The position numbers and the translations under genes are program-made. 64,000 bases of DNA. It comes from Candidatus Latescibacterota bacterium (lineage in GTDB: Bacteria; Latescibacterota; UBA2968; UBA8231). The DNA lies in contig OY730476.1 in the NCBI GenBank assembly GCA_963422735.1, positions 384,001-448,000 of the forward strand, written 5' to 3'. This document shows positions 6,546-41,181 of this stretch, piece after piece. Each line of letters begins with the position of its first letter. Position 1 is the stretch's first letter. The notes beneath the pieces were generated by a model. That model was not told where the DNA came from and did no database searches. It was given only the letters and a program-made list of their open reading frames with translations.

Positions 6546-6556
6546 CTGAAGGCTGA

Positions 6557-6736
6557 TTAGGAAGTGCATACCGCAGTCCCGCTCTCGCACGTGCAACTGG
6601 TCTTCCAACCGATTGCCTTGCACTTACTCCCATCAGGGCAAGTGATACTGCAATAAATAGCCTCGGCCTTCTGCGGCAGGAAGCTGGCGATCAAGCTCGT
6701 GAGGCCAATGGCCAGCCGGATGATGCGCTTTTTCAT
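6557..6736 (-). CDS. Cys-rich secreted precursor peptide 1 (59 aa, not in ORF track)
   Basis: MKKRIIRLAIGLTSLIASFLPQKAEA-IYCSITCPDGSKCKAIGWKTSCTCESGTAVCTS*; SD AAGGGAG; leader shared with three paralogues; 6 Cys. Confidence 0.9.
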   Translation of the reverse strand: MKKRIIRLAIGLTSLIASFLPQKAEAIYCSITCPDGSKCKAIGWKTSCTCESGTAVCTS

Positions 6737-6910: not shown

Positions 6911-7055
6911 ATGCGTGACCAGTGGTCGTCAATCGCGCCGAATCCTCTGATTATATGAATCATAACTTATTGTTAAGTAATGGTTTATAAAAAATAAACT
7001 AAATTTTATCGCCGTCTCTCAGGCCCTTTGTGCGACCCTTTTAACGGCCTAAAAG

Positions 7056-7093
7056 TGCGATAATATATCGCACAAATGCGTCTAAACATCGCA
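7056..7093. promoter_or_regulatory. Tandem 17-bp palindromic boxes (putative enhancer/UAS)
   Basis: TGCGATAATATATCGCA and TGCGTCTAAACATCGCA, 21-bp period, ~145 bp upstream of the sigma-54 site. Confidence 0.8.
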
Positions 7094-7236
7094 CGGACGC
7101 GCCTGTCGGTTGTACTAAGCCGCCCTTGCTCTGAAGGGGTCGGCTGGGTCGGCTTCTCAGGGAGGGTGTGGGCAGACGCACCAGCGGGCAGCCCGGTCCT
7201 ATGGGCTGCCCGCTTTATTCGTTGTGGAATTTCAGA

Positions 7237-8808: not shown

Positions 8809-8871
8809 GGTGCGGCTCCTATCGGTGGGAGGTGAGTGGCTACGGCGCAGGCTTGGGTCTGCCCCTGATTT

Positions 8872-9927
8872 TCAGGCCGCCCGAGCCGGATGCCGCCGCA
8901 GCAAGGCTTCTATCTCGGCCAGCTCGTCGGGCGATACCTCTCCGTACCGCTCGTGCAGATGCAACAGGTCGCGCAAGACTAATTCGGCGGGCATGAGCGG
9001 ATCGGGCCAAATGCCCGCCCGCCACAGTTCGATCAACCACAGCTTGGGGTCGCCGTTTTCCCGTACCATATAGTCGATGGCTTGTTCCCGGGTGCGCTGC
9101 TCGGCGGCGAGTCTGCACGGATCGGAAAACTCGTGATAGTGGTACAAGTGATACGTCAGGGCGTGGCGGGCAAAGCCCGGACCGACGCCGACGCGCTGCA
9201 ACCGATAGGCCAAATCCCATCCCTCGGAAAATGGAATGTCCGCCGCAAAGCCGCCCACCGCGCCGAAGGCTTGGCGTGGCACCGCGCTGTTGTGCGGATA
9301 GAAACCGAGAAAGCCCAGTGGCGAATCCGGATGCGCCGCGAACAGTGCCGCGACCTGATCTTGCATGGTCTTCAGTTCGTCAAAGGGATAGCCGCCTTCT
9401 TGAGCACGGGCGTGGATGCCGGCAAAGTCGTGGCGGATTTGGTCTTCGGTGATCAGCACCTGCTCTCGATGGAGCCGCAGGAAGTCGGCTAAGACGCTCG
9501 GGGTGCGCTCGGGGTCAAAGATGGCCTGCTGCGGGTCGGGCAGATACTCGAGGAGGGGCAGGCTATACAGGAAGCCGCACACATAGCGCTGGCGTCCTCC
9601 GCGCTCCCATTCCGCCCAAAGGTGCTCCAACCAACCGGGATGCGGCAAGGCGTCGCCGTCGAGAAAGGCCACCAACTGGCCTCGCGCCTGTTCGACGCCG
9701 GCATTGCGTGCTAAGCAGCGACCCACGTTGGGACGCATCGGCACCACGTGTACGTCTGGATATTCAGCGGCTAGCATGGCGTCCGTACCATCGGTGCAGC
9801 CATCGTCAACGACGATGATCTCAAAACGCTCCTTGGGAAAATGCTGGCCGGCCAAGCCACACAACACCAAGCGCAGGCGCGCCCGCTGGTTGTGGGTGGC
9901 AATGACGACGGAAGTATCGAGGCTCAT
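8872..9927 (-). CDS. Glycosyltransferase family 2 (intact copy)
   Basis: SVVIATHN, IIVVDDGCTDGT, ARNAG, FLDGD (DxD), VGGF..EGWDLAYRL, HLYH. Confidence 0.9.
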   Translation of the reverse strand: MSLDTSVVIATHNQRARLRLVLCGLAGQHFPKERFEIIVVDDGCTDGTDAMLAAEYPDVHVVPMRPNVGRCLARNAGVEQARGQLVAFLDGDALPHPGWLEHLWAEWERGGRQRYVCGFLYSLPLLEYLPDPQQAIFDPERTPSVLADFLRLHREQVLITEDQIRHDFAGIHARAQEGGYPFDELKTMQDQVAALFAAHPDSPLGFLGFYPHNSAVPRQAFGAVGGFAADIPFSEGWDLAYRLQRVGVGPGFARHALTYHLYHYHEFSDPCRLAAEQRTREQAIDYMVRENGDPKLWLIELWRAGIWPDPLMPAELVLRDLLHLHERYGEVSPDELAEIEALLRRHPARAA

Positions 9928-9942
9928 GAGATTCTCCTTTGA

Positions 9943-10078
9943 TTAGTGGTTAGTGGTTAGTGGCCGGTGGTCAGGGGTCAGGGGTTAGTCCCCCGCAACC
10001 CCACCTGGAGTGTGGGGTCTGATCACCGGCCACTGATCACCGGCCACTGATCACCGGCCACTGATCACCGGCCACTGC
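9943..10078. repeat. Heptamer-based tandem repeats in inverted arrangement
   Basis: (TTAGTGG)3 CCGGTGG (TCAGGGG)2 on the left, (CTGATCACCGGCCA)4 on the right. Confidence 0.85.
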
Positions 10079-10079
10079 C

Positions 10080-12590
10080 TCACTGGCATTCAAGGGTCAA
10101 ATGGCATTCGTAGTGCAATCCTTCGGGTATGGTTAGCTGCCGGTTGGGTTCGGTCGCGGCGTTGGGGTTGGGCACCATGAGCTGGGGAATGTCCACGACT
10201 GACTTGGAGCACATTACCCGGTGGCAGTCTATGTGGCCAAAGTAGTAATCGATAAACGCCTCGCTGTGTCTCTCAATGCGCTGGCGCAGCAGGGGGTCGG
10301 TGACGTTGTCCGCGGTCATGGCCTGACGGCTCAGGGCGATGCCGTGAAATTCCACTGGAAACCAACCGGTCGCGCTCGTATATAGCTCCACCCAAGTGTG
10401 GCCGAAGATAGGGGTGTCATACGTGCTAATGCCATAGCGATCCGGTCCTTGCGGTGCTACGACCAAGCCGCCGTTCACCTCGCGGGCGGGAATGTCCAGC
10501 AGGCGGCACAGTGCCATATAGGTGCGGCTCAAGGTAATGCAGTGGCCGCTGTCTTCGCGGAGCGTCATGGACGTACTACAGGCTAGGCACTGGCACTTTT
10601 CGTTGGTTTTCTGGAAACGCTTGCTGCGCGAAAGGCCCTCGTACAGGCGGCGGGCCTTATCGACCTCGCTTAGGCCCGGTTCGTCGAGCTGCAAATCGGC
10701 GAGGAAGTCGCGCACCAGACGCGACCGGCTCAGGGAGTCTTCTATTTGGGTGTAGTGGCGGTGTTCGCTAGGCGTCAGCGGCGCAGGAACGCGCCCGGCC
10801 ATGGGTAGGTTATGCACCTCGACTTCGCAGGAATACGAGAATTCTAGCGTCCTATCGGCTGGCTCAATAGAGCAGGGATAGGCGTAGAAAAAGCCGGCGT
10901 GGGGTGCCAGATAGGGACGCAATTGGCTCGGATTGCAGGCGATCAGCTCGACGACTGGCTGCTGGGAAAGGTGCAGTGGATAGGGCAAAAATAGCCGCGC
11001 CGACCCGCTGCTCGCGCAAGAGGTTACATGCGCCTTGTAGGTATAGGTCACTCGGTAGCGCTGGCTAGATTGGCGCACCTTTAGCCTGCCGTTGCAAAGC
11101 GCGAGAAAAGGCGCTCGCATCTGTTCCCGCATTTGGTAATCCAGCTCGAAGAAGCGCGGCTCGTGATCGTAGAGCCAGTTCCACGAACTCCGCTTGTTGT
11201 ACCACACCAACCGCCCCTGACGCACGTGAGGTATGCCCCGCTGGCGCGCCTCGGCGAGCAGGGCGCGGAGGGTCGGCAGGGGAGCGGGGCCGGTCAGGGG
11301 GTAGAGATGGCGGATAAATTCGTCCTCTAACACCATGTTGTCTTGCTCAATCGGGTCGTTGTGATAGAGCATCTTATCGATTACATCCGCGGCGATGTCC
11401 CCGCCTTTATAGGCGGATAGGTGCTTGACAAAGGCGGCACAGCGGGTGCTGAATTCTTCGTAGTGGTCGAACAGGTAGCGCACTTGCTCGGCTAGGTCTT
11501 CGGCTTGGGCCAGGCACTGGCGCGGCAGTTTCAGGCCCAGCCCCAAGTCGCGCACTCGGTTGAGGTGGTACTCTTGATCGAGATGTTCGGGTGCCCCTAG
11601 GATCGGTACTCCCTCGGCTAGCGCGTGGTAGATAGAGCCAATGCCGCCAACGCCGATAAAGAGCGCAGCGTGGCGCATGGCCAAGCGGGCAGGCAGATAT
11701 TCGACGATCCGCACGTTGGCCGACGGGGCTTCCGCTGCATAACGGCCGGCCGTGGTTACTAGCAAGCGAAAAGGCAAATGGGCAAATGTTTGGAGGATGG
11801 CTGGCAAAAAGTGGTCGTCAACGCCGGTGCTGCCGCAGTTGAAGTACACTAAGGGCAGCGAGGTATCCCAGCCCTCGTCGGCCAGTGCCGTAGGTGGTTC
11901 GTCGGCTGTTGGCTCGTCTTCGATGAGCGGGCCGATGTAGTAATAGGAAGGAGGCACTGGCCCGGCGGACGGATGGAATTGGGGTACATCGGCCAGCAGG
12001 AATGCGCTGCGGTGAGGCCGCTGCTGGGCGAAGTGTTCGGCTAGGTATTCGTCCAAGCAGCCGGCTTGCATCGGGAAGTAATCGGGCAGGCGAATGGGGC
12101 TGGAATAGGCGGGCAGGTTGTACGCCGCGTCTATAAAGGCAATGTCGATGCCTTCCAAAGCGGCTGTTAGCCGCAACGTGGGGCGCAAATCGGCGATGAG
12201 CAAGGAGGGCTGCACTTGGCGCACGAGTGCTTGCTCCGCCTCGATGCAGCGCCGGATCCATTCGTCGTTGTAATATTCGTACTCGCCCCGCGCTAGGTGC
12301 TCGTCCATGCGCTGTTGCGGCATAGTTTCGACGTCGTAGAGCGGGAAGCCTTCGGCTGCAATGCGCTGGGCGTGCGGCCCTCGTCCGGCGAAGAGGACCT
12401 CGTATCCGCGCTGGCGCAGCGCACGCGCCACTACGAGCGGGCGGATGGTGTGGGCCAAGCTATAGCCGTGAAAGAAGACGAGGAGGCGATGCTGGTCGCG
12501 CTGGAGGGTGGCCTCTTGCTCCATTTTGGCCAGAAAGGCGTTCCAAACGGTGAACCAAGCCCCAAACTTTTTGTTGAGTTGTGCTAACAT
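10080..12590 (-). CDS. GT-B (GT1/MGT-like) glycosyltransferase fused to transglutaminase-like domain (copy 1)
   Basis: N-half GYSLAHTIRPLVVARAL..RGYEV, GGIGSIYHAL..GVP....PEHLDQ; C-half GHCITLSRTYMALCRLLDIPAREVNG, HTWVELY, GWFPVE. Confidence 0.82.
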   Translation of the reverse strand: MLAQLNKKFGAWFTVWNAFLAKMEQEATLQRDQHRLLVFFHGYSLAHTIRPLVVARALRQRGYEVLFAGRGPHAQRIAAEGFPLYDVETMPQQRMDEHLARGEYEYYNDEWIRRCIEAEQALVRQVQPSLLIADLRPTLRLTAALEGIDIAFIDAAYNLPAYSSPIRLPDYFPMQAGCLDEYLAEHFAQQRPHRSAFLLADVPQFHPSAGPVPPSYYYIGPLIEDEPTADEPPTALADEGWDTSLPLVYFNCGSTGVDDHFLPAILQTFAHLPFRLLVTTAGRYAAEAPSANVRIVEYLPARLAMRHAALFIGVGGIGSIYHALAEGVPILGAPEHLDQEYHLNRVRDLGLGLKLPRQCLAQAEDLAEQVRYLFDHYEEFSTRCAAFVKHLSAYKGGDIAADVIDKMLYHNDPIEQDNMVLEDEFIRHLYPLTGPAPLPTLRALLAEARQRGIPHVRQGRLVWYNKRSSWNWLYDHEPRFFELDYQMREQMRAPFLALCNGRLKVRQSSQRYRVTYTYKAHVTSCASSGSARLFLPYPLHLSQQPVVELIACNPSQLRPYLAPHAGFFYAYPCSIEPADRTLEFSYSCEVEVHNLPMAGRVPAPLTPSEHRHYTQIEDSLSRSRLVRDFLADLQLDEPGLSEVDKARRLYEGLSRSKRFQKTNEKCQCLACSTSMTLREDSGHCITLSRTYMALCRLLDIPAREVNGGLVVAPQGPDRYGISTYDTPIFGHTWVELYTSATGWFPVEFHGIALSRQAMTADNVTDPLLRQRIERHSEAFIDYYFGHIDCHRVMCSKSVVDIPQLMVPNPNAATEPNRQLTIPEGLHYECHLTLECQ

Positions 12591-12659
12591 GGCTCTCTAC
12601 TTTCGCAAAGTTTTGAACACAGCGGCGATCATGACGGACTCTTGGGGCATAAAGGCTTC

Positions 12660-13457
12660 TTACATGCCCAACAGAAACATGTGTGTTTGCGGTACGCCAG
12701 TACTGAAAAAGGCTTCTACGTGTCGCCACACGGCCCGCTCTTTGTCCCACACGAGCCGAAAGAAGGACGGAGTTCGTCCTGGCGTCTCAAATGTGGCGAA
12801 CTCCTCTGGCTCTTCGACGATGAACATGATGTCGGCGAAGACCATCTGCTCGCCTCCCGCTAGGCGCGTTTCAATTTCTTCGCGCAATGGGGGCGTTATA
12901 GTGGTGCAGCCCTTGGGAAGCATACCGTGGGTTTGGGCGTAGGACTGATAGCTATCGTACTGTTTCTGCATGTAGAATACCCTGAACTCGCTATCGAAAA
13001 AAAATGCGTTTGCAAAAAAGTAGTCGCAGTCTAGATCCGCGAGTGTTTTTTGATATTCGGCTTTGACCTTTTCAAATAATTCTGGAATGCCACGCTTTAT
13101 CTTTAAGTCCGGGTTTTTAATCCTTTCACGTAGATAGAAGGTGGCAGCTAGACTATCGTTGCCCGAAGCTGAAAAGGCGACCAGCAAGTCGTAGAGCCAG
13201 TCGCGTAGCCCCGCTTCTTGTTCGAGATCAATAGCCGTCCCCAGATCAATGGGCACGGCTTCTACGGCTTGCCGCAATTGGGGGCCATCTTCAACCGTCA
13301 TCATCTCTTGGCCGTGAATGTAGTCGTAGAAGACTTGAATACTGTCGGGGGAAAAGCCGCCGTATTGGCTTTTCGTCTCGGCGGCGACCCTGCCGGGGCA
13401 GTACAGCCAAGCTGCGGCAAAGGCCAAGCACAGGGTGCGAACTGCGAGCGTTTTCAT
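12660..13457 (-). CDS. Secreted protein family X paralogue
   Basis: Start MKTLAVRTLC after AAGGAG; signal peptide; shared family motifs. Confidence 0.82.
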   Translation of the reverse strand: MKTLAVRTLCLAFAAAWLYCPGRVAAETKSQYGGFSPDSIQVFYDYIHGQEMMTVEDGPQLRQAVEAVPIDLGTAIDLEQEAGLRDWLYDLLVAFSASGNDSLAATFYLRERIKNPDLKIKRGIPELFEKVKAEYQKTLADLDCDYFFANAFFFDSEFRVFYMQKQYDSYQSYAQTHGMLPKGCTTITPPLREEIETRLAGGEQMVFADIMFIVEEPEEFATFETPGRTPSFFRLVWDKERAVWRHVEAFFSTGVPQTHMFLLGM

Positions 13458-13537
13458 CTGCATTCTCCTTGTGATAGACGGCAGGGGCCGTCGGGTGTCT
13501 GCTTCGTTTGCAGCGGGTTGTCTTTGGAGATAGATAT

Positions 13538-13552
13538 GCAATAAGCGTACCA
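13538..13552 (-). promoter_or_regulatory. Sigma-54 -24/-12 promoter
   Basis: TGGTAC-GCTTA-TTGC(A). Confidence 0.8.
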
Positions 13553-13664
13553 ACAGGATGCTAATTGCTCGTTGATATTGTTTAAGTATTTATTAAACAA
13601 TATCTTAGGGGAAAAAACAGCAGGTGCTCGGCTGCGTAGTAGATGCGGTTTTGCAACCTATCGG

Positions 13665-17006: not shown

Positions 17007-17225
17007 CTATGCCGTGCAGGTAGCGACCCCATCAACGCACCCAGCACGGCACACGGGAGCCTCTATCTCGCAAGAGGTGACGACAGTTATCTGACTTCCG
17101 TCCGGCCGAGTAATTATCTTTGTGCACGTTCCAGAGGTGCAGATTGCCGCTTGCGCCTTCTGCGGCAGGAAACTGGCGACCAAGGCGGTGAGGCCAATGG
17201 CCATTCGGATGATGCGCGTCTTCAC
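17007..17225 (-). CDS. Cys-rich secreted precursor peptide 2 (72 aa)
   Basis: MKTRIIRMAIGLTALVASFLPQKAQA-AICTSGTCTKIITRPDGSQITVVTSCEIEAPVCRAGCVDGVATCTA; SD AAAGGAG; 6 Cys. Confidence 0.9.
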   Translation of the reverse strand: MKTRIIRMAIGLTALVASFLPQKAQAAICTSGTCTKIITRPDGSQITVVTSCEIEAPVCRAGCVDGVATCTA

Positions 17226-24744: not shown

Positions 24745-24921
24745 TTATCCGGACGGTGCCGGGTAATCAATGCAAATAGCCCAGCCTAGGGAGCAGAAGC
24801 ATATCCAGTTCCCCGAGCAACTGGTGAAAAAGCAGTTGACCTTGCAAGCCTCCGCCTTCTGCGGCAGGAAGCTGGCGACTAAGGCCGTGAGACCAATAGC
24901 CGTCTTGATGAGCACTTTCAT
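24745..24921 (-). CDS. Cys-rich secreted precursor peptide 3 (58 aa, not in ORF track)
   Basis: MKVLIKTAIGLTALVASFLPQKAEA-CKVNCFFTSCSGNWICFCSLGWAICIDYPAPSG*; SD AAAGGA; 6 Cys. Confidence 0.9.
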   Translation of the reverse strand: MKVLIKTAIGLTALVASFLPQKAEACKVNCFFTSCSGNWICFCSLGWAICIDYPAPSG

Positions 24922-26080: not shown

Positions 26081-26767
26081 TTAGGCAGTCCTATGGATGT
26101 TCCACAGGGGATGGCGCGTTAGCAGGGCTTCTATCTCGGCTATCTCACTAGGTGTAATCTGTTGGTAGCACTGGTGGAAGTGCAGCAGGTCGCGCAAGAT
26201 CAACTCTTCGGGAATAAAAGGGTCCGGCCAGATGCCCGCCCGCCAAAGTTCGATCAACCACAGCTTGGGATTGTTATTGTGATGCGACATATAGGAGATG
26301 CCCGCCACTCTTTTGCGTTGCTCGTCCTTGAACTTGCTCGGGTTGGAAAACTCGTGATAGTGATATAGGTGATAGGTCAACGCCTCGCGCACAAAGCCGG
26401 GAAGGACGCCAGCAGCTTGTAGCCGATAGGCCAGATCCCACCCCTCGGAAAAGGGTATATGGGCGGCGAAGCCACCCACATCGAGAAAGGCTTGGCGCGG
26501 CACCGCGCTGTTGTGCGGATAGAAGCCGAGGAAGCCTATCGGCGAATCGGGATGCGCTGTGTATAGTTCCGTGACCTGATCCTGCACGTGTACCTCTGGA
26601 TATTCGGCGGTCAGCATGACGTCCGTACCATCGGTGCAGCCATCGTCAACGACGATGACCTCGAAGCACTCCTTGGGGAAACGCTGGCAAGCCAAGCCAC
26701 ACAAGGCCAAGCGCAGACGTTCCATTTGGTTGTAAGTCGCAATGACCACGGAAATATGTACACTCAT
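26081..26767 (-). pseudogene. GT2 glycosyltransferase with ~127-codon in-frame deletion
   Basis: AEYPEVHV|QDQV junction at ~26585 removes residues ~62-188 of the 351-aa paralogue, including the DxD motif. Confidence 0.85.
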
Positions 26768-26784
26768 CAAGTTGCTCCTTATTG

Positions 26785-29307
26785 TTACAGGCACTCAAAG
26801 GTCAGATGACATTCGTAGTGCAGCCCTTCGGGGCTGATCAGTTGCCGGTGGGGTTCGGTCTTGGCGTTGGGATTTTGTACCACTAGTTGCGGTATCTCCT
26901 TGGCCGAGTTTGAACACACTATCCTGTGGCAGTCTATATGGCCGAAGTAGTAGCCGAAGAATGCTTCGCTGCGTGCTTTGATGCGCTGGCGCAGTGCCGC
27001 GTCGGCGACATTGTCCTCGGTCATAGCGATGTCGCCGAGGTAGATGCCGTGGAACTCCACCGGCAACCAGCCAGTCTGGGGCGTGTATAGCTCCATCCAA
27101 GTATGGCAGAAGATGGGGCCATCGTACGTGGTGATCCCATAGCGGCCCGGTCCTTGGGGCGCAACAGCCAAACCCCCAGTCACTTCGCGAGCCGGGATAT
27201 CGAGTAAGCGGCATAGCGCGATAAAGGCTCGCGTTAGGGTCAGACAATGGCCGTCCTCGTTGCGGAGCGTCCTTTCCGTGCTACAAACTAAGCACTGGCA
27301 TTTCTCAGTGGTCTTTTTGAATCGCTTGCTATGCACTAGATACTGGTATATGTGCCGAGCCTTCTCCATGTCGTCAAGAGCCGGTTCGTCTAAGCGCAGA
27401 GTATCCAAGAAATCGCGAACCAGATGCGACTCGCTCAGTTTGTCTTCTACTTGCGTATAGTGGCGATGCTCTCCGGCGGTCAGCGACGCGGGCGTCTGCC
27501 CGGCGAGTGGCAGGTTATATACTTCAACCTCGCAGGAATACGAGAAGGTGAGCGTCTCATCAGCCGGGTTGATGTGGCAGGGATAGGCGTAGAAGAAACC
27601 AGCGCGTGGAGCCAGATAGGGGTGCAACTCACTTGGGTTGCAGTCAATTAACTCGACGACCGGCTGCTGGGGCAAGCGCAGGGGATAGGGTAAAAAAAGC
27701 TGCGCTGGTCCTTCGCTTGTGCAGGACTTTGTATGTGCCTTGTAGGTATAGGCCAACCGGTAGCGTTGGCTGGGGATGCGGGCTTTTAACTTGCCGCCGT
27801 GATGAGTGAGAAAAGGTGCCCGCATTTGTTCCCGTGCTCGGTAGTCTGGCTCAAAGAAGCGAGGCTCGTGATCGTAGAGCCAATTCCACGAGTTGTCGGT
27901 ATCGTACCATACCAGTCGTCCGCGGCGCAGATGCGGCATGCCCCGCTGACGCGCATCGCTCAGCATGGCGCGGATGGCCGAGCGAGGAAAGTCGTCGGTG
28001 ATAACTGGATAGAGGTGGCGGATGAATTCCTCCTCGACCGCCATATTTTTTGGATCGAGCTGTGCGCTCTGGTGGTGCGTGAATAGCAGGCCATCTATCA
28101 CATCGGCGGCCGCCTCGCCGCCTTTCCAAGCGGAGACATGGGACGCAAAGGCGGCACAGCGGGTGCTGAATTCCTCATAGTGGTCGAATAGGTAGCGCAC
28201 TTGCTCGGCCAAGTCTTCGGCTTGGGCAAAGTGCTGGCGCGACAGTTTCAGGCCGAGGCCGAGGTCGCGCACTCGGTTGAGGTGGTATTCTTGATCGAGG
28301 TGTTCGGGTGCCCCTAGGATCGGCACGCCCTCGGCCAGCGCGTGGTAGATGGAGCCAATGCCGCCAATGCCGATAAAGAGCGCAGCGTGGCGCATGGCCA
28401 AGCGGGCGGGCAGGTACTCGACGATCCGCACGTTGGCCGAGGGTGCTTCCACCGCATAGCGGCCGGCCGTAGTAACTAGCAGGCGATAGGGCAAGGGGGC
28501 CAAGGCCCGCAGGACGGCAGGCAAAAAGCGGTCCTCTACGCCGGTGCTGCCGGCATTGAAGTAGATGAGGGGCAGCGAGGGGTTCCAGCCAGCGTCGGCT
28601 AGGGCCGCGGGTGGTTCATCGGCTATGGGCTCGTCTTCGATGAGCGGCCCGACGTAGTGATGGGAGGGGGGCACCGGTCCGGCGGACGGATGGAACTGAG
28701 GCACATCGGCCAGCAGGAACGCGCTGCGGTAGGGCCGCGTCCGGGCGAAGTGCTGAGTTAGGTATTCGTCAAAACGACCGGCCCGCACCGGGAAGTAGTC
28801 AGGCAAGCGAATGGGGCTAGAGTAGGAGGGCAGGTTGTACGCCGCGTCTATAAAGGCGATGTCGATACCTTCCAAGGCGGCCGTTAGCCGCAGTGTGGGT
28901 CGAAAGTCGGCGATGAGCAAGGAGGGCTGTACTTGGCGCACGAGTGCTTGCTCGGCCTCGATGCAGCGCCGGATCCACTCGTCGTCGTAATATTCGTACA
29001 CGCCCCGGGCTAGGTACTCGTCCATGCGTTGCTGCGGCATGGTTTCGACATCGTAGAGTGTGAATCCCTCGGCCGCAATGCGCTGGGCGTGCGGTCCCCG
29101 TCCGGCGAAGATGATTTCGTACCCACGTTGACGCAGCGAACGCGCCACCACGAGCGGGCGAATCACATGGGCCAAACTGTAGCCGTGAAAGAAGACTAAG
29201 AGGCGATGCTGGTCGCGCTGGAGGAACGCCTCTTGCTCCATTTTGGCCAGCAAGGCGTTCCAAACGGCCAACCAATCCCACAGCTTTTTGTTGAGTTGTG
29301 CTAACAT
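26785..29307 (-). CDS. GT-B glycosyltransferase + transglutaminase-like fusion (copy 2)
   Basis: Full-length paralogue of 10080-12590; GHCLTLTRAFIALCRLLDIPAREVTG, HTWMELY, GWLPVE. Confidence 0.82.
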   Translation of the reverse strand: MLAQLNKKLWDWLAVWNALLAKMEQEAFLQRDQHRLLVFFHGYSLAHVIRPLVVARSLRQRGYEIIFAGRGPHAQRIAAEGFTLYDVETMPQQRMDEYLARGVYEYYDDEWIRRCIEAEQALVRQVQPSLLIADFRPTLRLTAALEGIDIAFIDAAYNLPSYSSPIRLPDYFPVRAGRFDEYLTQHFARTRPYRSAFLLADVPQFHPSAGPVPPSHHYVGPLIEDEPIADEPPAALADAGWNPSLPLIYFNAGSTGVEDRFLPAVLRALAPLPYRLLVTTAGRYAVEAPSANVRIVEYLPARLAMRHAALFIGIGGIGSIYHALAEGVPILGAPEHLDQEYHLNRVRDLGLGLKLSRQHFAQAEDLAEQVRYLFDHYEEFSTRCAAFASHVSAWKGGEAAADVIDGLLFTHHQSAQLDPKNMAVEEEFIRHLYPVITDDFPRSAIRAMLSDARQRGMPHLRRGRLVWYDTDNSWNWLYDHEPRFFEPDYRAREQMRAPFLTHHGGKLKARIPSQRYRLAYTYKAHTKSCTSEGPAQLFLPYPLRLPQQPVVELIDCNPSELHPYLAPRAGFFYAYPCHINPADETLTFSYSCEVEVYNLPLAGQTPASLTAGEHRHYTQVEDKLSESHLVRDFLDTLRLDEPALDDMEKARHIYQYLVHSKRFKKTTEKCQCLVCSTERTLRNEDGHCLTLTRAFIALCRLLDIPAREVTGGLAVAPQGPGRYGITTYDGPIFCHTWMELYTPQTGWLPVEFHGIYLGDIAMTEDNVADAALRQRIKARSEAFFGYYFGHIDCHRIVCSNSAKEIPQLVVQNPNAKTEPHRQLISPEGLHYECHLTFECL

Positions 29308-32907: not shown

Positions 32908-33912
32908 TCAAGCGGCCATCGCCTTAAGGACCGCTTGGCTCTGCATTTCCATACCGAGTTGCTTAAACAGGCGCAACGCCGCCACCCACTCTGCCAACGC
33001 CCGCTGCTTGTCGCCATCCTGTTGCGCGTACAGATTGCCCAAGGACACGTAGTTGAAAGCCTGCCTCCTCGCGTTACCCAACTGTCGGCACAGGTCCATA
33101 CAAGCCTCTATATGCCGTTGCGCCCTCGCTAGGTCGCCGGCTGTCATGTAGAGGTCTGCTAGCAGCGTCGCCATGCTGTAGTGACCGCGGGCATGCCCCT
33201 GCGCCACGTAGATGCTCAAGGCTTGGTTGCCACTGCTCAAGGCGCGTTCTGTATGGCCTAAGTCGCGGCTGACCGAAGCGATGGAGCCGAGTTGTAAGGC
33301 CACTTCGAGCGGCGTCCCTTGCTGCCGGGCTGCCGCGAGGCCCGCCGTGAAATGTTGTAGGGCCTGCTCGGGGTCGCCGCGGCGCAGGGCCAGTTGTCCC
33401 AAGCTGTTGAGCAGGTTGCTCGGCACGTCGTTGTCATAGAGGGCGTGGCTGCGATGGAGCCACTGTTGAGCTTTTTCCAAGTCGTTCTGCTGCATGTAGA
33501 GGTTGCCCATATTGTTGGCCATCTTGGCTGCGAGGGCGGCGTCCCCTCCTTCTTGGGCGTGCTGGATGGCCTTATGGTAGTACGCGGTGGCTTCGGCGAA
33601 GTGGGCTTGGCTTTGTTTGATAAAGCCCACATTGCCTTCGACCTCGGCTACATCGCACCGGGAGCGGCTAGGCGAGCAGGCGGCCAATGCCTCTTGGAAG
33701 TACTGGAGCGATTCGTCGAGGTCGCCGGCGATCTCGTAGTGGTGGCCGAGCTGGGTGCAAGTCGCAAAAAGCCCCTTTTGGCATTCCTCGGCGCGAAAGA
33801 GCCGACGCGCTGTTTGGTAGTGGGTGGCCGCTTGCTCGTGCTGCCCCTTCTTGCGGCAGGTATGGCCCGCTTTGAGATGTGTCCACGCCTCGGTTGTTTT
33901 GGGCGAATTCAT
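32908..33912 (-). CDS. Tetratricopeptide-repeat protein (intact)
   Basis: Repeated LG..Y...G...A...Y..AL helical pattern; no signal peptide. Confidence 0.85.
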   Translation of the reverse strand: MNSPKTTEAWTHLKAGHTCRKKGQHEQAATHYQTARRLFRAEECQKGLFATCTQLGHHYEIAGDLDESLQYFQEALAACSPSRSRCDVAEVEGNVGFIKQSQAHFAEATAYYHKAIQHAQEGGDAALAAKMANNMGNLYMQQNDLEKAQQWLHRSHALYDNDVPSNLLNSLGQLALRRGDPEQALQHFTAGLAAARQQGTPLEVALQLGSIASVSRDLGHTERALSSGNQALSIYVAQGHARGHYSMATLLADLYMTAGDLARAQRHIEACMDLCRQLGNARRQAFNYVSLGNLYAQQDGDKQRALAEWVAALRLFKQLGMEMQSQAVLKAMAA

Positions 33913-35043: not shown

Positions 35044-35268
35044 TTACCCGGCAGGGTGGTCCTCGGCTTCGCATACCGCCCTATTGTCAGCGTCGCAGTA
35101 GCATCTGGTTTTGTCGCCAAACACGGGACCACAGCAATCTTTGATGCGGAAAGGCCACTTTCCTCTTGTGCAACATTTGCTACAGGTGGCGGCTAGCACC
35201 TCTTGGGGCACAAGGCTGGCCACTAGGCCCATGAGGGCAATCATCGTTAAGATGATGCGCTTTTTCAT
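35044..35268 (-). CDS. Cys-rich secreted precursor peptide 4 (74 aa)
   Basis: MKKRIILTMIALMGLVASLVPQEVLA-ATCSKCCTRGKWPFRIKDCCGPVFGDKTRCYCDADNRAVCEAEDHPAG; 8 Cys. Confidence 0.9.
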   Translation of the reverse strand: MKKRIILTMIALMGLVASLVPQEVLAATCSKCCTRGKWPFRIKDCCGPVFGDKTRCYCDADNRAVCEAEDHPAG

Positions 35269-35944: not shown

Positions 35945-36366
35945 TTAGCCGGCTGCCGTTACGTAGGCTCTGCTTGTCGAGCACGGCGCAGTGAGGCGGT
36001 GCCAAGCCACGATAAATTGCTCAGAAAACGTCATGCTGCTGATTCTGGCGGGAGCGTCGAGGACGCGCTCGCTGACCAAGGCTTGGGGGTCAGCCTCTAA
36101 GCGGCGTATTGCCGCGCTTAGAGCTTCCACCGTAGGAGCAAAACGGTGGTGGGGCGGGATAGCCGGATAAGCAGGGAGGGCTGTAGCTGGCGCAATGTAC
36201 GCGCTACAACGAGGGGGCGGATTGTGTGTGCCAAACTATAGCCGTGAAAGAACACCAAAAGACGATGCCCGTCGCGCTGGAGGGCTGTCTCTATCTCCAT
36301 TTTTTTTAGACGGGCGTTCCAAGCGGCGAACCAATTCCAAAACTTCTTGTTGAGTCGGTCCAACAT
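35945..36366 (-). pseudogene. Collapsed glycosylation operon: GT-transglutaminase 5' end joined to GT4-like 3' end
   Basis: MLDRLNKKFWNWF...FFHGYSLAHTIRPLVVARTLRQ|LQPSLLI, then EALSAAIRRLEADPQAL... (same as 25566-25720). Confidence 0.85.
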
Positions 36367-36410
36367 AGCGACCTGCTTTCGCAAGGGGTGGCTTTTGTGG
36401 AGATAGTTAG

Positions 36411-36425
36411 GCAATCGGCGTACCA
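36411..36425 (-). promoter_or_regulatory. Sigma-54 -24/-12 promoter
   Basis: TGGTAC-GCCGA-TTGC. Confidence 0.78.
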
Positions 36426-36536
36426 ATAGAGCAGAAACTTCCTATTAATGCTCTTTAAGTAGCATTTAAACAATATCTTAGGAAAATATTCAGCAAATGC
36501 CCAGCCGCGTATTCGCCCTTTTTTATAGCCGATAAG

Positions 36537-36833: not shown

Positions 36834-38240
36834 TCAGGGTCGGCTGCCGTATTGGCTCACATCTATGTCGAACTGCTTGATCTTGCGCTGTAAATTGCGC
36901 CGCCCCAACTGGATCTGCTGAGCGGCGTGGCTGATGTTGCCGCCCGTTTTCTCTAGAGCGTCTCGGATAAACTGCTCCTCAAAGTGCTGGCGCGCCTCGT
37001 GGAAGAGCGAGTCGGGCCGACCTACTGCTTCCTCTTCTGCTGCTGCTGGCTCATCCTGAAGGGGAGCGTCCTCTACGATCGTCGTCGGCAGGTCCTCGAC
37101 CTCGATTTCCCGTCCCTTGGAGAGGGCTATGGCACGCATGATCGCGTTCTCCATTTCGCGCACATTGCCCGGCCAGTCGTAGGCTTCGAGATACTCTAGG
37201 GCCTCCTTGCTGACCCCTTGTATCTGTTTGTTGAAGCGGTCGTTTAGGTGGTCGATAAAGAAGTGACAGAACAAGGGAATGTCGGTCTTGCGCTGGCGCA
37301 GCGGCGGCACTTCGATGGTGACCGCGTTGAGGCGGTAGAACAAATCCTCGCGGAACTGGCCCGCGGCCACGGCCTGCGTCAAATTGCGGTTGGTCGCGGA
37401 CAGGACGCGCACATCCGCCTTGCGGGTTTTGGTCGATCCCACCACCTCGAACTCCCCTTCCTGCAACACGCGCAACAGCCGGGTTTGTAGCCCCACCTCC
37501 ATGTCGCCGATTTCGTCGAGGAACAGGGTGCCGCCATCGGCCTCCATAAAACGCCCTTTGCGGTCGCGCACTGCGCCAGTGAAAGCGCCTTTTACGTGCC
37601 CGAACAATTCGCTCTCTAGTACGCCTGGGTTCAAGGCCGCGCAATTGCAGCGCACAAAGGGGCCAGTGGCGCGGTCGCTGGAGCGGTGGATGGCCGCGGC
37701 TACGAGCTCCTTGCCGGTGCCGCTCTCGCCGCAGATTAGCACCGGCAGGGGGGTGGCGGCCACGTCTTGGACCAGCCGGTAGATTTGCCGCATCTGCTCG
37801 GTCTCGCCGACCATGCCCAACCCCTCGCCCTGTGCTTGGCGCAAGCGCTCGTTTTCGGCGCGGAGCTTTTGCAACTCGCGGATATTGTTGATGTGGCTGA
37901 GGATTTCTTCGGCATTAAAGGGCTTTGCCAGATACCCATAGGCGCCCAGCTTGACGGTCTCTACCGCGCTTTGGAGATCCGCATACGCCGTTAAGATGAG
38001 CACTTCCTCGGGCCGCTCGCGCACGTTGAGGTGCTGCAGAAGTTCGAGGCCGCTCATCTCGGGCATGTGCAAGTCGAGCAGGATGATGTCAAAGGATTCT
38101 TCTCGCAGGAGCGCGAGGGCCTCGCGCGCGTCCGAGCGGGTTTCCACCGCGAAGCCCTCGCGCCGCAAGATGCTGCTCGACAGCTTCAGCAGATCCTGCT
38201 CGTCGTCGATCATGAGTATTTTGCCGTCGTATCGAGCCAT
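36834..38240 (-). CDS. Sigma-54-dependent response regulator (NtrC/AtoC/ZraR family)
   Basis: Receiver domain (IDDE, LLDLHMP); AAA+ motifs GESGTGKE, ESELFGHVKGAFTGA, WPGNVRE; Fis-type HTH (GGNISHAA). Confidence 0.95.
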   Translation of the reverse strand: MARYDGKILMIDDEQDLLKLSSSILRREGFAVETRSDAREALALLREESFDIILLDLHMPEMSGLELLQHLNVRERPEEVLILTAYADLQSAVETVKLGAYGYLAKPFNAEEILSHINNIRELQKLRAENERLRQAQGEGLGMVGETEQMRQIYRLVQDVAATPLPVLICGESGTGKELVAAAIHRSSDRATGPFVRCNCAALNPGVLESELFGHVKGAFTGAVRDRKGRFMEADGGTLFLDEIGDMEVGLQTRLLRVLQEGEFEVVGSTKTRKADVRVLSATNRNLTQAVAAGQFREDLFYRLNAVTIEVPPLRQRKTDIPLFCHFFIDHLNDRFNKQIQGVSKEALEYLEAYDWPGNVREMENAIMRAIALSKGREIEVEDLPTTIVEDAPLQDEPAAAEEEAVGRPDSLFHEARQHFEEQFIRDALEKTGGNISHAAQQIQLGRRNLQRKIKQFDIDVSQYGSRP

Positions 38241-38242
38241 AT

Positions 38243-40363
38243 CTATGCCTTTTCCTTTTTATTATAAGGCAGCAAGAGCGCGAAGCAAGTGCCTTTGCCA
38301 ACGCGGCTTGTAACCTCTATGTGCCCGCCGATTTCTCGAAGCTGGTGCTGGGCAATGGCCAGCCCCAAGCCCGTGCCTTCTCCCGGAGCTTTGGTGGAAA
38401 AGAACGGCTCAAAGATGCGGGGGATTTGTTCTGGGTCAATCCCGGTGCCGGTGTCGCAGATTTTTATGGCGACGCCCCCCGGCTCGGGGCGGGTGCTCGC
38501 CTGCAAGCGGCCGCCTTGGGGCATGGCTTGGAAGGCGTTGCGGATGATGTTGAGGTAGATATCCTTGAGCATGTCGCGGTTTATGAGCGCGGGTGGCACC
38601 GGCTCAAACTGCCGCTCAATCGAGATGCCGAGGTGCTCGGCGTGTTGGGTCTCCAAGTCGAGCAACTGCCCCAGCACCTCGGCCGCGTCTATCTGCTCGA
38701 CTAGATGCTGGGCTGGTCGCGCGAAGTCGAGCAGGCTGCCGACGCGCTCGTCTATGCGGCGGATGGCCTCGCACATTATATGCAAGGTCTCGTCGCGCTC
38801 CTTTTCTTCTGTGGGATCCAACCGAGGTAGTAGGTCGCAGGTGTTCTGTATAATGGCGAGGGGATTTTTGATCTCGTGCGCTACGCCAGCGGCTACCTCC
38901 CCGAGCGCCGATAGCTTTTCGGCCTGCATGTAGTGCAGTTCGAGCAGGTGCTGCTGCGTCTGATCTTCAACGACGAGCAAGACCTTGCCGCGATGACCAT
39001 AGCTCAACTCGGCCTTGTGCAGGTTCCAGTGGTGCATAGTGCCCTCGGCATCCTCGATTGCGAGGGCATCAACTACTTGCAGGCTCGGGTGGGCCTTTAG
39101 CCAAGCGCGTATTTGGGCTCCGGCGTGGGTCGCGCTCAATGCGGCGTCCCGTTCCGGCAGCAGCAAGCTGGACCATACTTTGTTGCTCTGCACGATGCGG
39201 TACTCGGCGTCGAGCACGGCAATGGCGAGGGGGTTGTCCTCGATCAGATGGTGCTGCAAATCCAAGGTGCTCTCCAAGTCCCGCTGATGCGCGGTTAGCC
39301 CTTGGTCCATCTCGACAAAAGCGTTGGCTAGTTCGCCGATCTCATCTCGGCGCGTCACGGGCGTTCCTGTGAGAGGATAGCCGTTCCGGCGGCGACGCAC
39401 GGCGTGCGTAAGCAAGACGAGGGGCGCGACGACCGAGCTGCGCGTCAGCCCGCCCAAAATCAGCGCCCCTAGTGCAGAAAGCGCGATGATCGCATAGAAG
39501 GAGTACAGCACGACCGTGTACGGATCATACGCCTCGTCTGCGCGCTGTTCGATGGCGACGATCCAGCCCCAATCGCTCACCGGAGCAAAGCCCGTGACCC
39601 ACTCGGTGTCTCCCACATCGCGCCACAGGAGAATTCCCGCCGGTCCGCGCATGGCCTCTATATGTGGGTGGTGTCGCCACGTGTAGAAGGACTGGCGCGT
39701 AGGCCGGGCCAGATAGTGCCCATCCTCGGCGTGGATCAAGGTCGCGTAGCCGGTCCTGCCGATGCGGACGAGATTTATCTTTTGCCAGACTTGGTGAAAG
39801 TCAAGGCGAGCTATTAGGGCTTGGGGCGGTTGGTCGTCCCGTTCCACCGGTAGCGCGACAAAGAGCTTGGGCGTCTCCTTGAATTCTTCGATTAGGGCAA
39901 CGTATAGGCTGCCTGCTGCTACCTTAGCCCAGGCCGCATCCCAGTCGTAAGAAACAGGCAGCGCAACCGACGCGCTCGCGGCCCGTATTTGGTTTTGGGC
40001 GTCCACTAGGTAGAGTCCCTCCACTTCGCTAGATCCGAGCGCGACCTTTTTGAGCAAAGCGCGCCAATCCTGCGGCTCGGTTTCCACAGATCGTGCGAGG
40101 CTTTCCAAATTGAAGGCGACCGGGGAAAAGATGCGGGCGATTTCCTCGGCCGTGCGGTGCGCCATTTCGCGGCGGCTTTCTAGCACGGCCTCTTCTATGG
40201 CTTCGCGGGCCGCGTTCAACACGATGAGATCGACCAGCAACACGGGCACTAGCCCCAAGGCGAGGTAATAGCCCACCAGGCGCAGCCACAGCCGTTGCTT
40301 GGTACTGCGCCAGCTTTTAAGCCTCGCGGCCCAGGTCTTCAGGCTTGGGATCAGCCATCGCAT
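38243..40363 (-). CDS. Sensor histidine kinase (TM, Cache-like, TM, HAMP, PAS-like, HisKA, HATPase)
   Basis: RDEIGELANAF (HAMP), AHEIKNPL (H-box), DTGTGI, FEPFFSTK, GTGLGL. Confidence 0.93.
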   Translation of the reverse strand: MRWLIPSLKTWAARLKSWRSTKQRLWLRLVGYYLALGLVPVLLVDLIVLNAAREAIEEAVLESRREMAHRTAEEIARIFSPVAFNLESLARSVETEPQDWRALLKKVALGSSEVEGLYLVDAQNQIRAASASVALPVSYDWDAAWAKVAAGSLYVALIEEFKETPKLFVALPVERDDQPPQALIARLDFHQVWQKINLVRIGRTGYATLIHAEDGHYLARPTRQSFYTWRHHPHIEAMRGPAGILLWRDVGDTEWVTGFAPVSDWGWIVAIEQRADEAYDPYTVVLYSFYAIIALSALGALILGGLTRSSVVAPLVLLTHAVRRRRNGYPLTGTPVTRRDEIGELANAFVEMDQGLTAHQRDLESTLDLQHHLIEDNPLAIAVLDAEYRIVQSNKVWSSLLLPERDAALSATHAGAQIRAWLKAHPSLQVVDALAIEDAEGTMHHWNLHKAELSYGHRGKVLLVVEDQTQQHLLELHYMQAEKLSALGEVAAGVAHEIKNPLAIIQNTCDLLPRLDPTEEKERDETLHIMCEAIRRIDERVGSLLDFARPAQHLVEQIDAAEVLGQLLDLETQHAEHLGISIERQFEPVPPALINRDMLKDIYLNIIRNAFQAMPQGGRLQASTRPEPGGVAIKICDTGTGIDPEQIPRIFEPFFSTKAPGEGTGLGLAIAQHQLREIGGHIEVTSRVGKGTCFALLLPYNKKEKA

Positions 40364-40410
40364 GTTGAAAAAGCCGCTTTCTCCATTCCTCACCCCGGCG
40401 TTGCAGTGCT

Positions 40411-41181
40411 TCAGCGACCGACGACAGCGGCCGAGAAGGTGAGGATGCCGAAACGGGTGGCGCGGTGGAAGTCGGCCGTGGGTGTGCCGGTGTCGGACCA
40501 CAGCCCAAATTGGCCTTGGTAGCCCTTAGTGCGGTTCAGTCCAGCGCGCCATTGGTCGCCGTCTTGGGGCGGGATTTGTCCACCCAAGTGGCGGAAGTTG
40601 TCGTGGGGGATGGCGATTTCGAGAATCCAGCTTTGGTCGGTGTCCGAGTGGTCGTTGAGGGTGCCGTCGTAGGTCGTGGCCATGAAGACGCCTTCGCTCT
40701 GCCAGGACGAGTGAATGGCCTTGGTGCGCTCCTTGCCGCCGCGAAAGGCGATATAATCGAGCAGCGTGCCGTTGATGTTCATCTCATAGCCATAGTAGTT
40801 GCCGGGGGCCGCTGCGTTGGGCGTGGCGAAAATCTCGACCGCGTCCTCTTGGTACACCGGCCCATCGTGCTCGGTTACTTCTGAATGCAGATACGGATCG
40901 ACGCACTCGTAGATGATGTAGAGATTGTCGTCGTCCCACAGCAAGCGGGCAGTCGTAGATTGCGGTTCCTCTTTTTCGAGGTCGCTCCAAGGCATGACAA
41001 AGGCGATGGGCGCGGCATGCTGCCAGTCGGCTTCGGCTAGGCGGCCATCGACTTGGATCCCTTGGTCGGTACGAAGGACTTGGTACGTGGGTAGCTCAGC
41101 AGGCGGGGCCTGGAAGCGGGTAGTCTCTTGGGTGCTGGCGGGACCAGCGAGGGCGAGGGCGAAGAGCAAGCTGTAGAGCAT
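40411..41181 (-). CDS. Secreted carbohydrate-binding family 9-like (DOMON-like) protein
   Basis: Signal peptide; VDGRLAEADW, TTARLLWDDDNLY, DAVEIF, WILEIAIP. Confidence 0.8.
   Translation of the reverse strand: MLYSLLFALALAGPASTQETTRFQAPPAELPTYQVLRTDQGIQVDGRLAEADWQHAAPIAFVMPWSDLEKEEPQSTTARLLWDDDNLYIIYECVDPYLHSEVTEHDGPVYQEDAVEIFATPNAAAPGNYYGYEMNINGTLLDYIAFRGGKERTKAIHSSWQSEGVFMATTYDGTLNDHSDTDQSWILEIAIPHDNFRHLGGQIPPQDGDQWRAGLNRTKGYQGQFGLWSDTGTPTADFHRATRFGILTFSAAVVGR

Follow-up and report, generated by a model that had tools for sequence, protein, structure and literature searches.

The subject of this analysis is a 64,000-nucleotide stretch of a Candidatus Latescibacterota genome (contig OY730476.1, positions 384,001 to 448,000; hereafter the window), which carries two full-length genes where a GT-B glycosyltransferase of family 1 (GT1) is fused to a transglutaminase-like module with a predicted Cys-His-Glu triad. 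We tentatively favour the view that the product of this fusion, termed GT1TG, is a cytoplasmic peptide-tailoring enzyme which would both glycosylate its substrate and carry out a Cys-dependent cleavage or acyl transfer. This view is based on the recurrent association of GT1TG with a family 2 glycosyltransferase (GT2) and a tetratricopeptide repeat (TPR) protein, on the existence of Rosetta-stone fusions joining the same parts in other orders, on the presence of small peptide genes nearby, on the clustering of GT1TG clades by genetic context, and on the location of a sister fusion beside non-ribosomal peptide synthetase (NRPS) genes or a lasso peptide cluster.

Both copies lie on the minus strand: the first (P0001; 10080..12590) codes for 836 amino acids and the second (P0002; 26785..29307) for 840, and they are 77% identical (647/839). 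The initial annotation had described each as a GT1-like domain of about 410 residues followed by a linker and a transglutaminase-like core. The two ends of that description are borne out by the open reading frames (ORFs), by Pfam scores above cut-off and by fold matches; the supposed linker is actually made of two folded domains. In P0001, the order is a GT-B domain (residues 1-410; 11361..12590, minus strand), a small winged-helix-like domain (residues about 418-480; 11151..11339, minus strand), seen in the structure model and its VIA fold matches, and a beta-sandwich (about 506-600) plus transglutaminase-like core (together residues 506-836; 10083..11075, minus strand). A full-length AlphaFold2 model of P0001, made from a 107-sequence alignment, has a mean pLDDT of 89.1 and a pTM of 0.63, a value which leaves the mutual orientation of the two halves uncertain; a separate model of residues 411-836 reaches a pLDDT of 91.9 and a pTM of 0.90. 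No signal peptide was recognised by eye on GT1TG, in agreement with the earlier reading.

The N-terminal half belongs to GT1 by sequence and by fold. Within residues about 260-380 of copy 1, three Pfam families score above their gathering thresholds: EryCIII-like_C (35.0 versus 31.7 bits), UDPGT (24.4 versus 19.5) and Glyco_tran_28_C (24.5 versus 22). A profile search of PDB sequences with residues 1-410 retrieved YjiC (6kqx, E 5e-23), and the top Foldseek matches of this region are all GT1 enzymes (CalG1, OleD, YjiC and CalG2/4; E about 1e-17, TM(target) 0.70-0.77), CalG1 (3oth) being aligned over about 410 columns with E 5e-18 and TM(target) 0.76. Among 107 full-length homologues, the residues of the nucleotide-sugar motif are nearly invariant (Asp338 and Glu340 in 107/107 each, Gln339 in 100/107), as are His41 (106/107), His47 (105/107) and Asp134 (101/107) in the N-terminal part. 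In the model, the two histidines are on the loop after strand 1 and the aspartate is on a later loop; they may be the equivalents of the catalytic His and Asp of OleD or of UDP-dependent glycosyltransferases.

The best NCBIfam match of the GT1 domain is the macrolide glycosyltransferase MGT (TIGR01426, E 2e-16), and OleI is also matched (E 9e-9, far below cut-off). OleI and OleD inactivate oleandomycin by glycosylation. Self-protection was thus considered as another function: the GT1 domain would inactivate a toxic peptide inside the producer, the peptide would be exported in masked form, and the transglutaminase-like domain would be an accessory. The nature of these two matches, both to macrolide-inactivating or self-immunity enzymes, speaks for this explanation, as does the fact that each peptide cassette of the window (see below) comes with ABC-2 permease pairs resembling bacteriocin immunity or export systems. 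Nevertheless, we find it highly doubtful, as the two copies score only 59.8 and 60.7 bits where the curated MGT cut-off is 260, no extracellular reactivating glycosidase was identified among the window ORFs scanned, and the invariant triad would go unexplained.

The core of the C-terminal module belongs to the transglutaminase-like superfamily (papain-like alpha+beta), again by sequence and by fold. Pfam Transglut_core (PF01841) matches residues 640-747 with 42.4 bits in copy 1 and 51.6 bits in copy 2 (cut-off 23). With residues 506-836, the best VIA matches are the Cytophaga 'putative cysteine protease' 3isr (Z 13.7, 244 residues aligned; Foldseek E 1e-9 for the module) and TgpA (6g4h, Z 9.6), followed by factor XIII, TG2 and TG3 (Z 7.1-7.6) and, within Z 6-7.6, by pseudomurein isopeptidases and arylamine N-acetyltransferases. 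Beta-sandwiches of this type stand ahead of the core in bacterial transglutaminase-like proteins. The secondary structure of the small domain runs beta-alpha-alpha-beta-beta, and its VIA matches are winged helix-turn-helix domains of MerR, excisionase and small-terminase type (Z 4.2-5.3, with about 50 residues aligned at an rmsd of about 2).

The predicted triad consists of Cys684, the putative nucleophile (codon 10539..10541), His731 (10398..10400) and Glu747 (10350..10352), all on the minus strand; the corresponding residues of copy 2 are Cys688, His735 and Glu751. Each of the three is found in 107/107 full-length homologues, and so are Trp733, Glu735 and Asp788. A hidden Markov model (HMM) alignment to TgpA (PDB 6g49) pairs GFC with GHC, AHAWVE with GHTWVE and GWLSVD with GWlPVE, so that Glu747 occupies the position of the catalytic Asp of the family, as the initial annotation had proposed. 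All the motifs it had named are present at equivalent positions in the two copies: KCQCLAC at 665, GHC at 682, HTWVE at 731, GWFPVE at 742 and HIDCHR at 786 in copy 1; KCQCLVC at 669, GHC at 686, HTWME at 735, GWLPVE at 746 and HIDCHR at 790 in copy 2. Wider relatives were aligned to the module profile (105 sequences, i.e. 104 relatives of at least 380 residues and P0001): the Cys is kept in 98, the His in 98, and the acid is Glu in 65 and Asp in 30, with a gap in 10. Toggling between Glu and Asp only is as expected of a functional triad residue. It could be argued that the replacement of Asp by Glu marks a degenerate, non-catalytic binding domain which leaves the GT1 half as the sole enzyme, all the more as catalytically dead transglutaminase-like domains do exist and one of them, protein 4.2, is among the fold matches (7tvz, Z 6.0). 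This is hardly credible in view of the invariance of the three residues, of the restricted choice of acid in the wider relatives, and of the Cys-His-Glu triad named in the title of the entry for an N-acetyltransferase of related fold (4dmo). Judged by residue conservation, both halves of GT1TG look catalytically competent.

The cysteines of the other motifs behave differently from the triad. The KCQCL.C and HIDCHR motifs, which the initial annotation had presented as conserved and possibly metal-binding, are indeed shared by the two window copies; among the 107 homologues, Cys666 and Cys668 are each found in 24, Cys789 in 58 and His790 in 69. Since these cysteines occur in about a fifth to half of the family, a family-wide metal site was rejected. 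From their distribution they are clade-specific rather than family features, and a metal site restricted to the clade may exist.

A word-seeded search (E <= 0.001) yielded 154 homologues, all in related contexts. The architecture is not rare, but neither is it common in unrelated contexts, which would have counted against the initial annotation. Among the matches listed, a GT1 family and PF01841 occur together in 116/120, and lengths are mostly 800-870 residues. In species-representative genomes, 50 loci were found, 42 of which are labelled Latescibacterota or Latescibacteria; five of the others are labelled Gemmatimonadota, and one each Planctomycetota, Peptococcaceae and 'uncultured bacterium', all of these being labels of metagenome-assembled genomes. 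Within the phylum of the window, a GT1TG match at E <= 1e-30 is present in 33/168 genomes, all from one family: 32/75 genomes of that family besides the window's own, as against 0/92 for the 13 other families. In the genus of the window, 21/30 genomes have GT1TG. Some genomes have up to 5 matches. The fusion is therefore lineage-restricted and often present as several paralogues.

The source genome (4.95 Mb, single contig) is an example, with four GT1TG loci including the two in the window. One of the others, at 351.5-353.9 kb, is 37-38% identical; the last, at 1.933-1.935 Mb (1,932,595-1,935,086, minus strand), is divided between two frames and has two TAG stops in its first part, and is a pseudogene or a sequencing error. 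The window also holds the remnant of a third copy (36118..36426, minus strand), a 102-residue ORF whose first ~60 residues match the N-terminus of GT1TG and which is divergent after that.

The genes surrounding GT1TG, called with a simple greedy ORF caller and labelled by BLASTP, define three types of context, A (that of the window), B and C, which are described below. A quickly built maximum-likelihood tree of 39 full-length fusions, from which ORFs shorter than 780 residues and the frame-broken copy were left out, resolves four main groups, three of them with support 100: 11 rows of type A that have family A peptides, 11 rows of type B, and 9 further type A rows in which a DUF1573 gene lies upstream. 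The fourth is type C, with 6 rows and support 89. Mapping the context labels onto the tree takes 7 changes, whereas the mean for shuffled labels is 18.0 and 0/200 shuffles were as low. GT1TG clades thus track context and peptide type, which is clustering and not co-evolution.

Two partner genes recur. A GT2 gene is the next gene after GT1TG in 35/42 loci (at least 1.2 kb of downstream sequence), and another 2 loci have one no further than five genes away; a TPR gene is found no more than three genes downstream in 21/42 loci. In the window, the GT2 partner of copy 1 is directly downstream (8872..9927, minus strand; 351 residues, Pfam Glycos_transf_2 93.9 bits). The one downstream of copy 2 (26081..26794, minus strand) has lost in frame the residues corresponding to about 62-187 of its intact paralogue; it is probably an inactive relic, because the missing stretch holds the FLDGD of the intact copy. 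The third recurrent partner, the TPR protein, has 334 residues (32908..33912, minus strand). A second TPR gene of the window (20893-21893, minus strand) is split into two overlapping frames, the C-terminal 195 residues being 92% identical to residues 140-334 of the intact one.

The partner GT2 has its best NCBIfam matches among exopolysaccharide enzymes (EpsD, E 6e-36, below cut-off). This raises another possibility: that the GT1, GT2 and TPR proteins make an envelope glycoconjugate or glycolipid, with the module regulating or anchoring the glycosyltransferases and with the proximity of peptide genes reflecting shared regulation. GT1 enzymes of the YjiC/OleD type usually glycosylate small hydrophobic molecules, in keeping with such a role, and transglutaminase homologues are reported to act with polysaccharide machinery (yeast Cyk3 with Chs2; Caulobacter HvyA and the capsule). 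Against this, the scan of window ORFs turned up no polysaccharide polymerase, flippase or initiating transferase, the invariance of Cys, His and Glu favours catalysis over scaffolding, and the sister family sits between NRPS genes (see below). We regard an envelope function as unlikely.

The association of the three parts is not limited to GT1TG. When 1.84 billion representatives were searched with a profile built from residues 411-836, 5874 proteins matched at E <= 1e-3; the match was at <= 1e-10 for 341 and at <= 1e-30 for 88. Many of these relatives have 660-770 residues, with the module starting at about residue 320-350 and a GT2 domain in the N-terminal part (consensus VDDGSTDGT ... FLD.DM in a 33-sequence alignment). 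That the N-terminal ~330 residues of the 700-750-residue relatives could be a short GT1 was considered and rejected, hhalign to the GT1 alignment giving a probability of 0.6%. The separate GT2 of the window is homologous to the fused one (hhalign probability 99.9, E 4e-37, 255 columns). In ten relatives scanned with Pfam, the combinations include GT2 + module + GT1 in a single 1204-residue protein (P0150), GT2 + module (P0144), GT4 + module (P0164), GT1 + module (P0134) and a weak methyltransferase match + module (P0147). By the Rosetta-stone argument, the joining of GT2, GT1 and module in several orders suggests that they act together.

The neighbourhood of the GT2-module fusion was analysed in the 17 metagenome loci which a script labelled as containing a full-length version; locus L071, full-length by eye, is not counted, and the set of loci includes the near-duplicate pairs L060/L065 and L067/L074. 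NRPS or fatty-acyl-AMP ligase (FAAL) genes are neighbours in 13/17. A separate GT1 of ~400 residues accompanies the fusion in 9 loci, and in L064 a GT1 is fused to a condensation-adenylation-thiolation (C-A-T) module; the NRPS-linked GT1 resembles that of GT1TG at family level (E 6e-10, 21% identity). The order FAAL-T-C-A-T NRPS > GT2-transglutaminase-module fusion > GT1 > C-A-T NRPS recurs in L055-L068 and L077. In the three NRPS proteins scanned, Pfam recognised domains of the AMP-binding, Condensation and PP-binding families but reported no thioesterase domain; the Cys-His-acid module might for that reason take part in the release of the NRPS chain. A different setting is provided by L074 (2873-10518) and its near-duplicate L067, where a lasso cluster, made of a PqqD+Transglut_core3 B protein, an Asn-synthase-type cyclase and a 78-residue candidate precursor, is directly followed by a GT2-transglutaminase-module fusion, a 405-residue protein of unknown family and a second GT2. 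The product of L074 may be a glycosylated lasso peptide.

These associations invite a broader and rather improbable generalization, in which the module, with Glu or Asp as its acid, would be a so far unrecognised catalytic unit of peptide tailoring that always travels with GT2 and GT1, a peptidyl-thioester formed on its Cys being passed to a sugar or to a sugar-borne amine or hydroxyl, or else released. If true, it would couple peptide and glycan chemistry in NRPS lipopeptides, in lasso peptides and, in Latescibacterota, in a new class of glycopeptides that would be disulfide-rich, carry Sec leaders, be under sigma-54 control and come with ABC-2/TolC-like cassettes of their own for export or immunity.

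Candidate substrates come from the small ORFs of the GT1TG loci, each context type having its own family, in which a hydrophobic leader is conserved and the core varies. At least one peptide of the three families is present in 29/47 loci, a lower bound since the models miss divergent leaders, for example in the 1.93-Mb locus of the source genome. Family A peptides have the leader MKKRIIRLAIGLTALVASFLPQKAEA and a core of 33-48 residues, mostly with a six-Cys framework; 21 HMM matches were obtained, four of them in the window. Family B combines a leader ending in ...GLALGWLGSVVAGLAVVFGTADRAQA with a core of 50-60 residues rich in Cys and aromatic residues, and was seen by eye in 9/13 type B loci, with L014 and L018 added by the HMM. 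Family C has no Cys and a conserved end, ...V[SG]Y.x[IV]G..D.DG.W.PP.PE; its gene is directly upstream of GT1TG (9 strong and 2 weak matches).

The four window peptides are all encoded on the minus strand: peptide 1 (6557..6736, 59 residues, with a signal-like leader and a six-Cys core), peptide 2 (17007..17225, 72 residues), peptide 3 (24745..24921, 58 residues) and peptide 4 (35044..35268, 74 residues). Their leaders have a hydrophobic core and end in AEA, AQA or VLA. In family B peptides, the hydrophobic stretch is immediately preceded by an R-Q-G motif; the loci concerned (source genome 340-361 kb, i.e. L051; L011-L018, L030, L038 and L039) encode a membrane protein resembling prepilin peptidases (Peptidase_A24) together with two redoxins. 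Family B leaders might be of class III (prepilin type) rather than Sec type I. A complex prediction for P0001 with peptide 1 scored 0.00 in two runs made without controls, and says nothing for or against binding.

About 150-170 nt upstream of each window peptide is a sigma-54-type -24/-12 site (6895-6910, 17398-17413, 25072-25087 and 35416-35431, all minus strand) matching TGGCACG-N4-TTGC with 0-1 mismatch. The four upstream regions can be aligned and share, in addition, a GGCGCGATTG box about 20 nt above the site and a Shine-Dalgarno sequence. Over the whole window, six sites with at most one mismatch were found versus 2.75 expected (6/100 shuffles were as high), and four of the six are the peptide sites; with up to two mismatches, no window-wide enrichment was detected (39 found versus 35.3 expected), so that we give weight to the sites with 0-1 mismatch and to their positions only. 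The head of the cluster codes for a sigma-54-dependent response regulator (36834..38240, minus strand) and a sensor histidine kinase (38243..40501, minus strand). The coincidence of sigma-54-type sites at all four peptides with an activator and a kinase at the cluster head counts in favour of the peptide-tailoring interpretation. Among 24 sequencing runs listed for positions 6000-13600 of the window, none was an RNA data set.

The remainder of each locus depends on its type. Type A contains ABC-2 permease pairs with DUF3526, secreted proteins of ~280 residues belonging to no known family, a DUF1573 protein, a NEW3-domain protein, a TolC-like outer membrane protein (OEP) and an ATP-binding cassette (ABC) ATPase, the last situated just before the start of the window. 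Type B is characterized by many FG-GAP proteins of ~700 residues with a sorting domain of the type IX secretion system (T9SS), by DUF4159 proteins, by two redoxins and by an A24-type peptidase; these redoxins and this peptidase fit the maturation of disulfide-rich peptides. Type C has the order two or three sigma-54 activators, small ORF, GT1TG, GT2, TPR, histidine kinase.

In the window, positions 3239-35074 are occupied by repeated cassettes with four ABC-2 permease pairs with DUF3526 and six paralogues of the ~280-residue secreted protein, which is usually encoded directly after a peptide gene and has no Pfam, NCBIfam or clear Atlas match: for the 272-residue member at 5599-6417, the best ESM Atlas matches (0.88-0.89) are unnamed Bacteroidota clusters, below the 0.9 level taken as a lead. 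The permeases have weak SagH and GldF matches. This arrangement suggests that the cassettes are peptide-specific export or immunity units. One secreted-protein paralogue (4718-5559, minus strand) is split into two ORFs; like the split TPR gene, it is either a decaying duplicate or the result of an indel error in a long-read assembly. At 323-3225, two genes have second copies 1.5 Mb away (1,928,046-1,929,554 onward in the source genome) in another cluster of the same kind, with an identity of 100% for the NEW3-domain gene and 99.8% for the OEP gene; the duplication is either very recent or the product of a collapsed assembly.

The abundance of secreted proteins in these loci offers a further explanation, namely that the GT1TG-GT2-TPR trio glycosylates larger proteins before their export, either the ~280-residue proteins (six window copies) or the FG-GAP/T9SS cargo of type B, the small peptides being bystanders. 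These multi-copy proteins are the most abundant variable genes of type A and type B loci; the type B proteins designated F0 have a T9SS type A sorting domain (29.7 versus 23 bits), and the cytoplasmic location suggested for GT1TG by the lack of a visible signal peptide would suit the scheme. Type C, however, does without such proteins and yet keeps the order peptide > GT1TG > GT2 > TPR, and the sister family, in its NRPS and lasso settings, directs attention to small peptides. We therefore consider it distinctly unlikely that larger proteins are the substrates.

In the peptide-tailoring scheme that we favour, P0001 and P0002 would act as a unit with the adjacent GT2 and often with the TPR protein, their likely substrates being the small, sigma-54-controlled, leader-bearing and Cys-rich peptides of the same cluster. 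The GT2 and the GT1 domain would use nucleotide-sugars to glycosylate either the peptide itself or its first sugar, and would do so ahead of export, as they would have to if the leaders are Sec signals. Cytoplasmic glycosylation ahead of Sec export has precedents in HMW1C, in the autotransporter heptosyltransferases and in GtfA/B of serine-rich adhesins. The winged-helix-like domain, beta-sandwich and core of the module would bind the peptide, and Cys684, assisted by His731 and Glu747, would form a thioester acyl-enzyme; hydrolysis of this intermediate would amount to cleavage, and its transfer to an amine or hydroxyl to a cross-link or an attachment. Cleavage, transamidation, esterification and off-loading are all possible activities of the module. 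The peptide would then be exported; the ABC-2 permease pairs, the ABC ATPase and the TolC-like protein may serve to carry it over the outer membrane or to shield the producer. The bifunctional maturase proposed in the initial annotation is partly supported, on the strength of context (GT2, peptide genes, two halves that look intact, NRPS and lasso sisters) rather than of any activity.

Several points weigh against this scheme. By eye, the peptide leaders look like Sec signal peptides, with a basic N-end, a hydrophobic core and an AxA-like end; their removal could then be the work of signal peptidase, and it is not obvious what a protease domain in the cytoplasm would be for. It also follows that the transglutaminase-like domain need not be a leader peptidase. 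No peptide match was found in 18/47 loci, some of them on short contigs, and in the window no peptide gene adjoins either GT1TG copy. The FG-GAP/T9SS proteins of ~700 residues could be the true substrates in type B. The canonical HHGG motif lacks its His pair in GT1TG (IGVGGIGS, versus VHHGGAGT in the NRPS-linked GT1), and because of this the sugar donor may be unusual. The ORF caller used for the neighbouring genes is crude, and the tree test overstates independence because related genomes share labels. Finally, what has been shown is domain identity, residue conservation and gene linkage, and it is from these that the scheme is inferred.

Both domain families are well known; their fixed combination as GT1, GT2 and a Cys-His-Glu module, joined in orders that differ from lineage to lineage but in every case within peptide-producing loci, was not found described. 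No account of the glycosyltransferase–transglutaminase-like architecture or of these peptide families was found in the literature, subscription journals and supplementary files being outside the search. GT1TG constitutes a large and conserved group of the transglutaminase superfamily with Glu as triad acid. If the module acts on peptides, it would represent a new tailoring step for glycopeptide natural products, and the fusion would provide a simple genome-mining handle on such products in uncultured phyla, for which three families of candidate precursors are available. To our knowledge, Latescibacterota have no cultured members; in this phylum the clusters would point to peptide-based competition or signalling under sigma-54 two-component control.

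Comparison with known systems helps to delimit what is shared. With YjiC (6kqx, 7bov), CalG1-4 (3oth) and OleD (2iya), GT1TG has in common the two-Rossmann GT-B fold over about 400 residues and the C-terminal D-Q pair; it is 15-22% identical to them and differs by a 426-residue C-terminal extension unlike anything they possess.

The parallel with lasso peptide maturation, drawn in the initial annotation, holds at superfamily level. According to a published review, lasso leader peptidases are transglutaminase-like and require a RiPP (peptide made by the ribosome and modified after translation) recognition element, or RRE (PMC10885120). Like a lasso B protein (RRE + leader peptidase of MEROPS family C96), GT1TG has a small domain of winged helix-turn-helix type followed by a Cys-His-acid domain of the transglutaminase superfamily, in a peptide cluster. 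The parallel goes no further: there is no Pfam match to PqqD or Transglut_core3 (PF13471) at E <= 0.1 in GT1TG, hhalign against the true lasso B protein of L074 gives a probability of 1%, and no Asn_synthase cyclase is present among 30 large window ORFs scanned, while the same family is detected in L074. The identification of residues 418-480 as a PqqD-type RRE was not borne out by Pfam, by the best 50 VIA matches or by hhalign to the lasso B protein; the small domain has the beta-alpha-alpha-beta-beta order of MerR or excisionase, unlike the lasso RRE. At fold level it may still be an RRE, since a weak or missing fold match is no exclusion. By Pfam family, profile comparison and context, GT1TG is not a lasso B protein.

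Glycocins are described in PMC12457901 and PMC12139839 as O- and/or S-glycosylated RiPPs. Glycocin systems of the sublancin type resemble the GT1TG clusters in that small disulfide-rich peptides occur together with a GT2, an ABC exporter and a Cys-protease-like domain, joined in type B loci by two redoxins. The glycocin components are a precursor, a GT2 S- or O-glycosyltransferase, thiol-disulfide oxidoreductases and a transporter with a Cys-protease domain. Here, in contrast, the leaders are Sec-looking and not of the double-glycine kind, the ABC-2 transporter is without a C39 domain (none was matched in the window permeases), an additional GT1 is present, it is a glycosyltransferase and not the transporter that carries the protease-like domain, and the host is from a Gram-negative phylum with a TolC-like protein. 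No specific likeness of the partner GT2 to SunS was seen among 32 PDB sequence matches at E <= 0.01, in a library whose SunS content is unchecked. By leader and by transporter type, the GT1TG cluster is not a glycocin system.

For the module, the closest comparisons are 3isr and the periplasmic domain of P. aeruginosa TgpA (6g49/6g4h), which have the beta-sandwich and core in common with GT1TG and whose G-x-C and H-x-W-x-E motifs align with its own; GT1TG differs by its Glu triad acid, its extra winged-helix-like domain, its fusion to a glycosyltransferase and its cytoplasmic location. We know of no defined substrate for the 3isr protein or for TgpA. NAT3 of B. cereus (4dmo, Z 6.1) is an acetyl-CoA-dependent N-acetyltransferase of small molecules, and its likeness to GT1TG is confined to the core (about 150 residues, 13% identity); over that core it has a related Cys-His-acid fold in which the acid is likewise Glu, the 'unique Cys-His-Glu catalytic triad' of the entry title.

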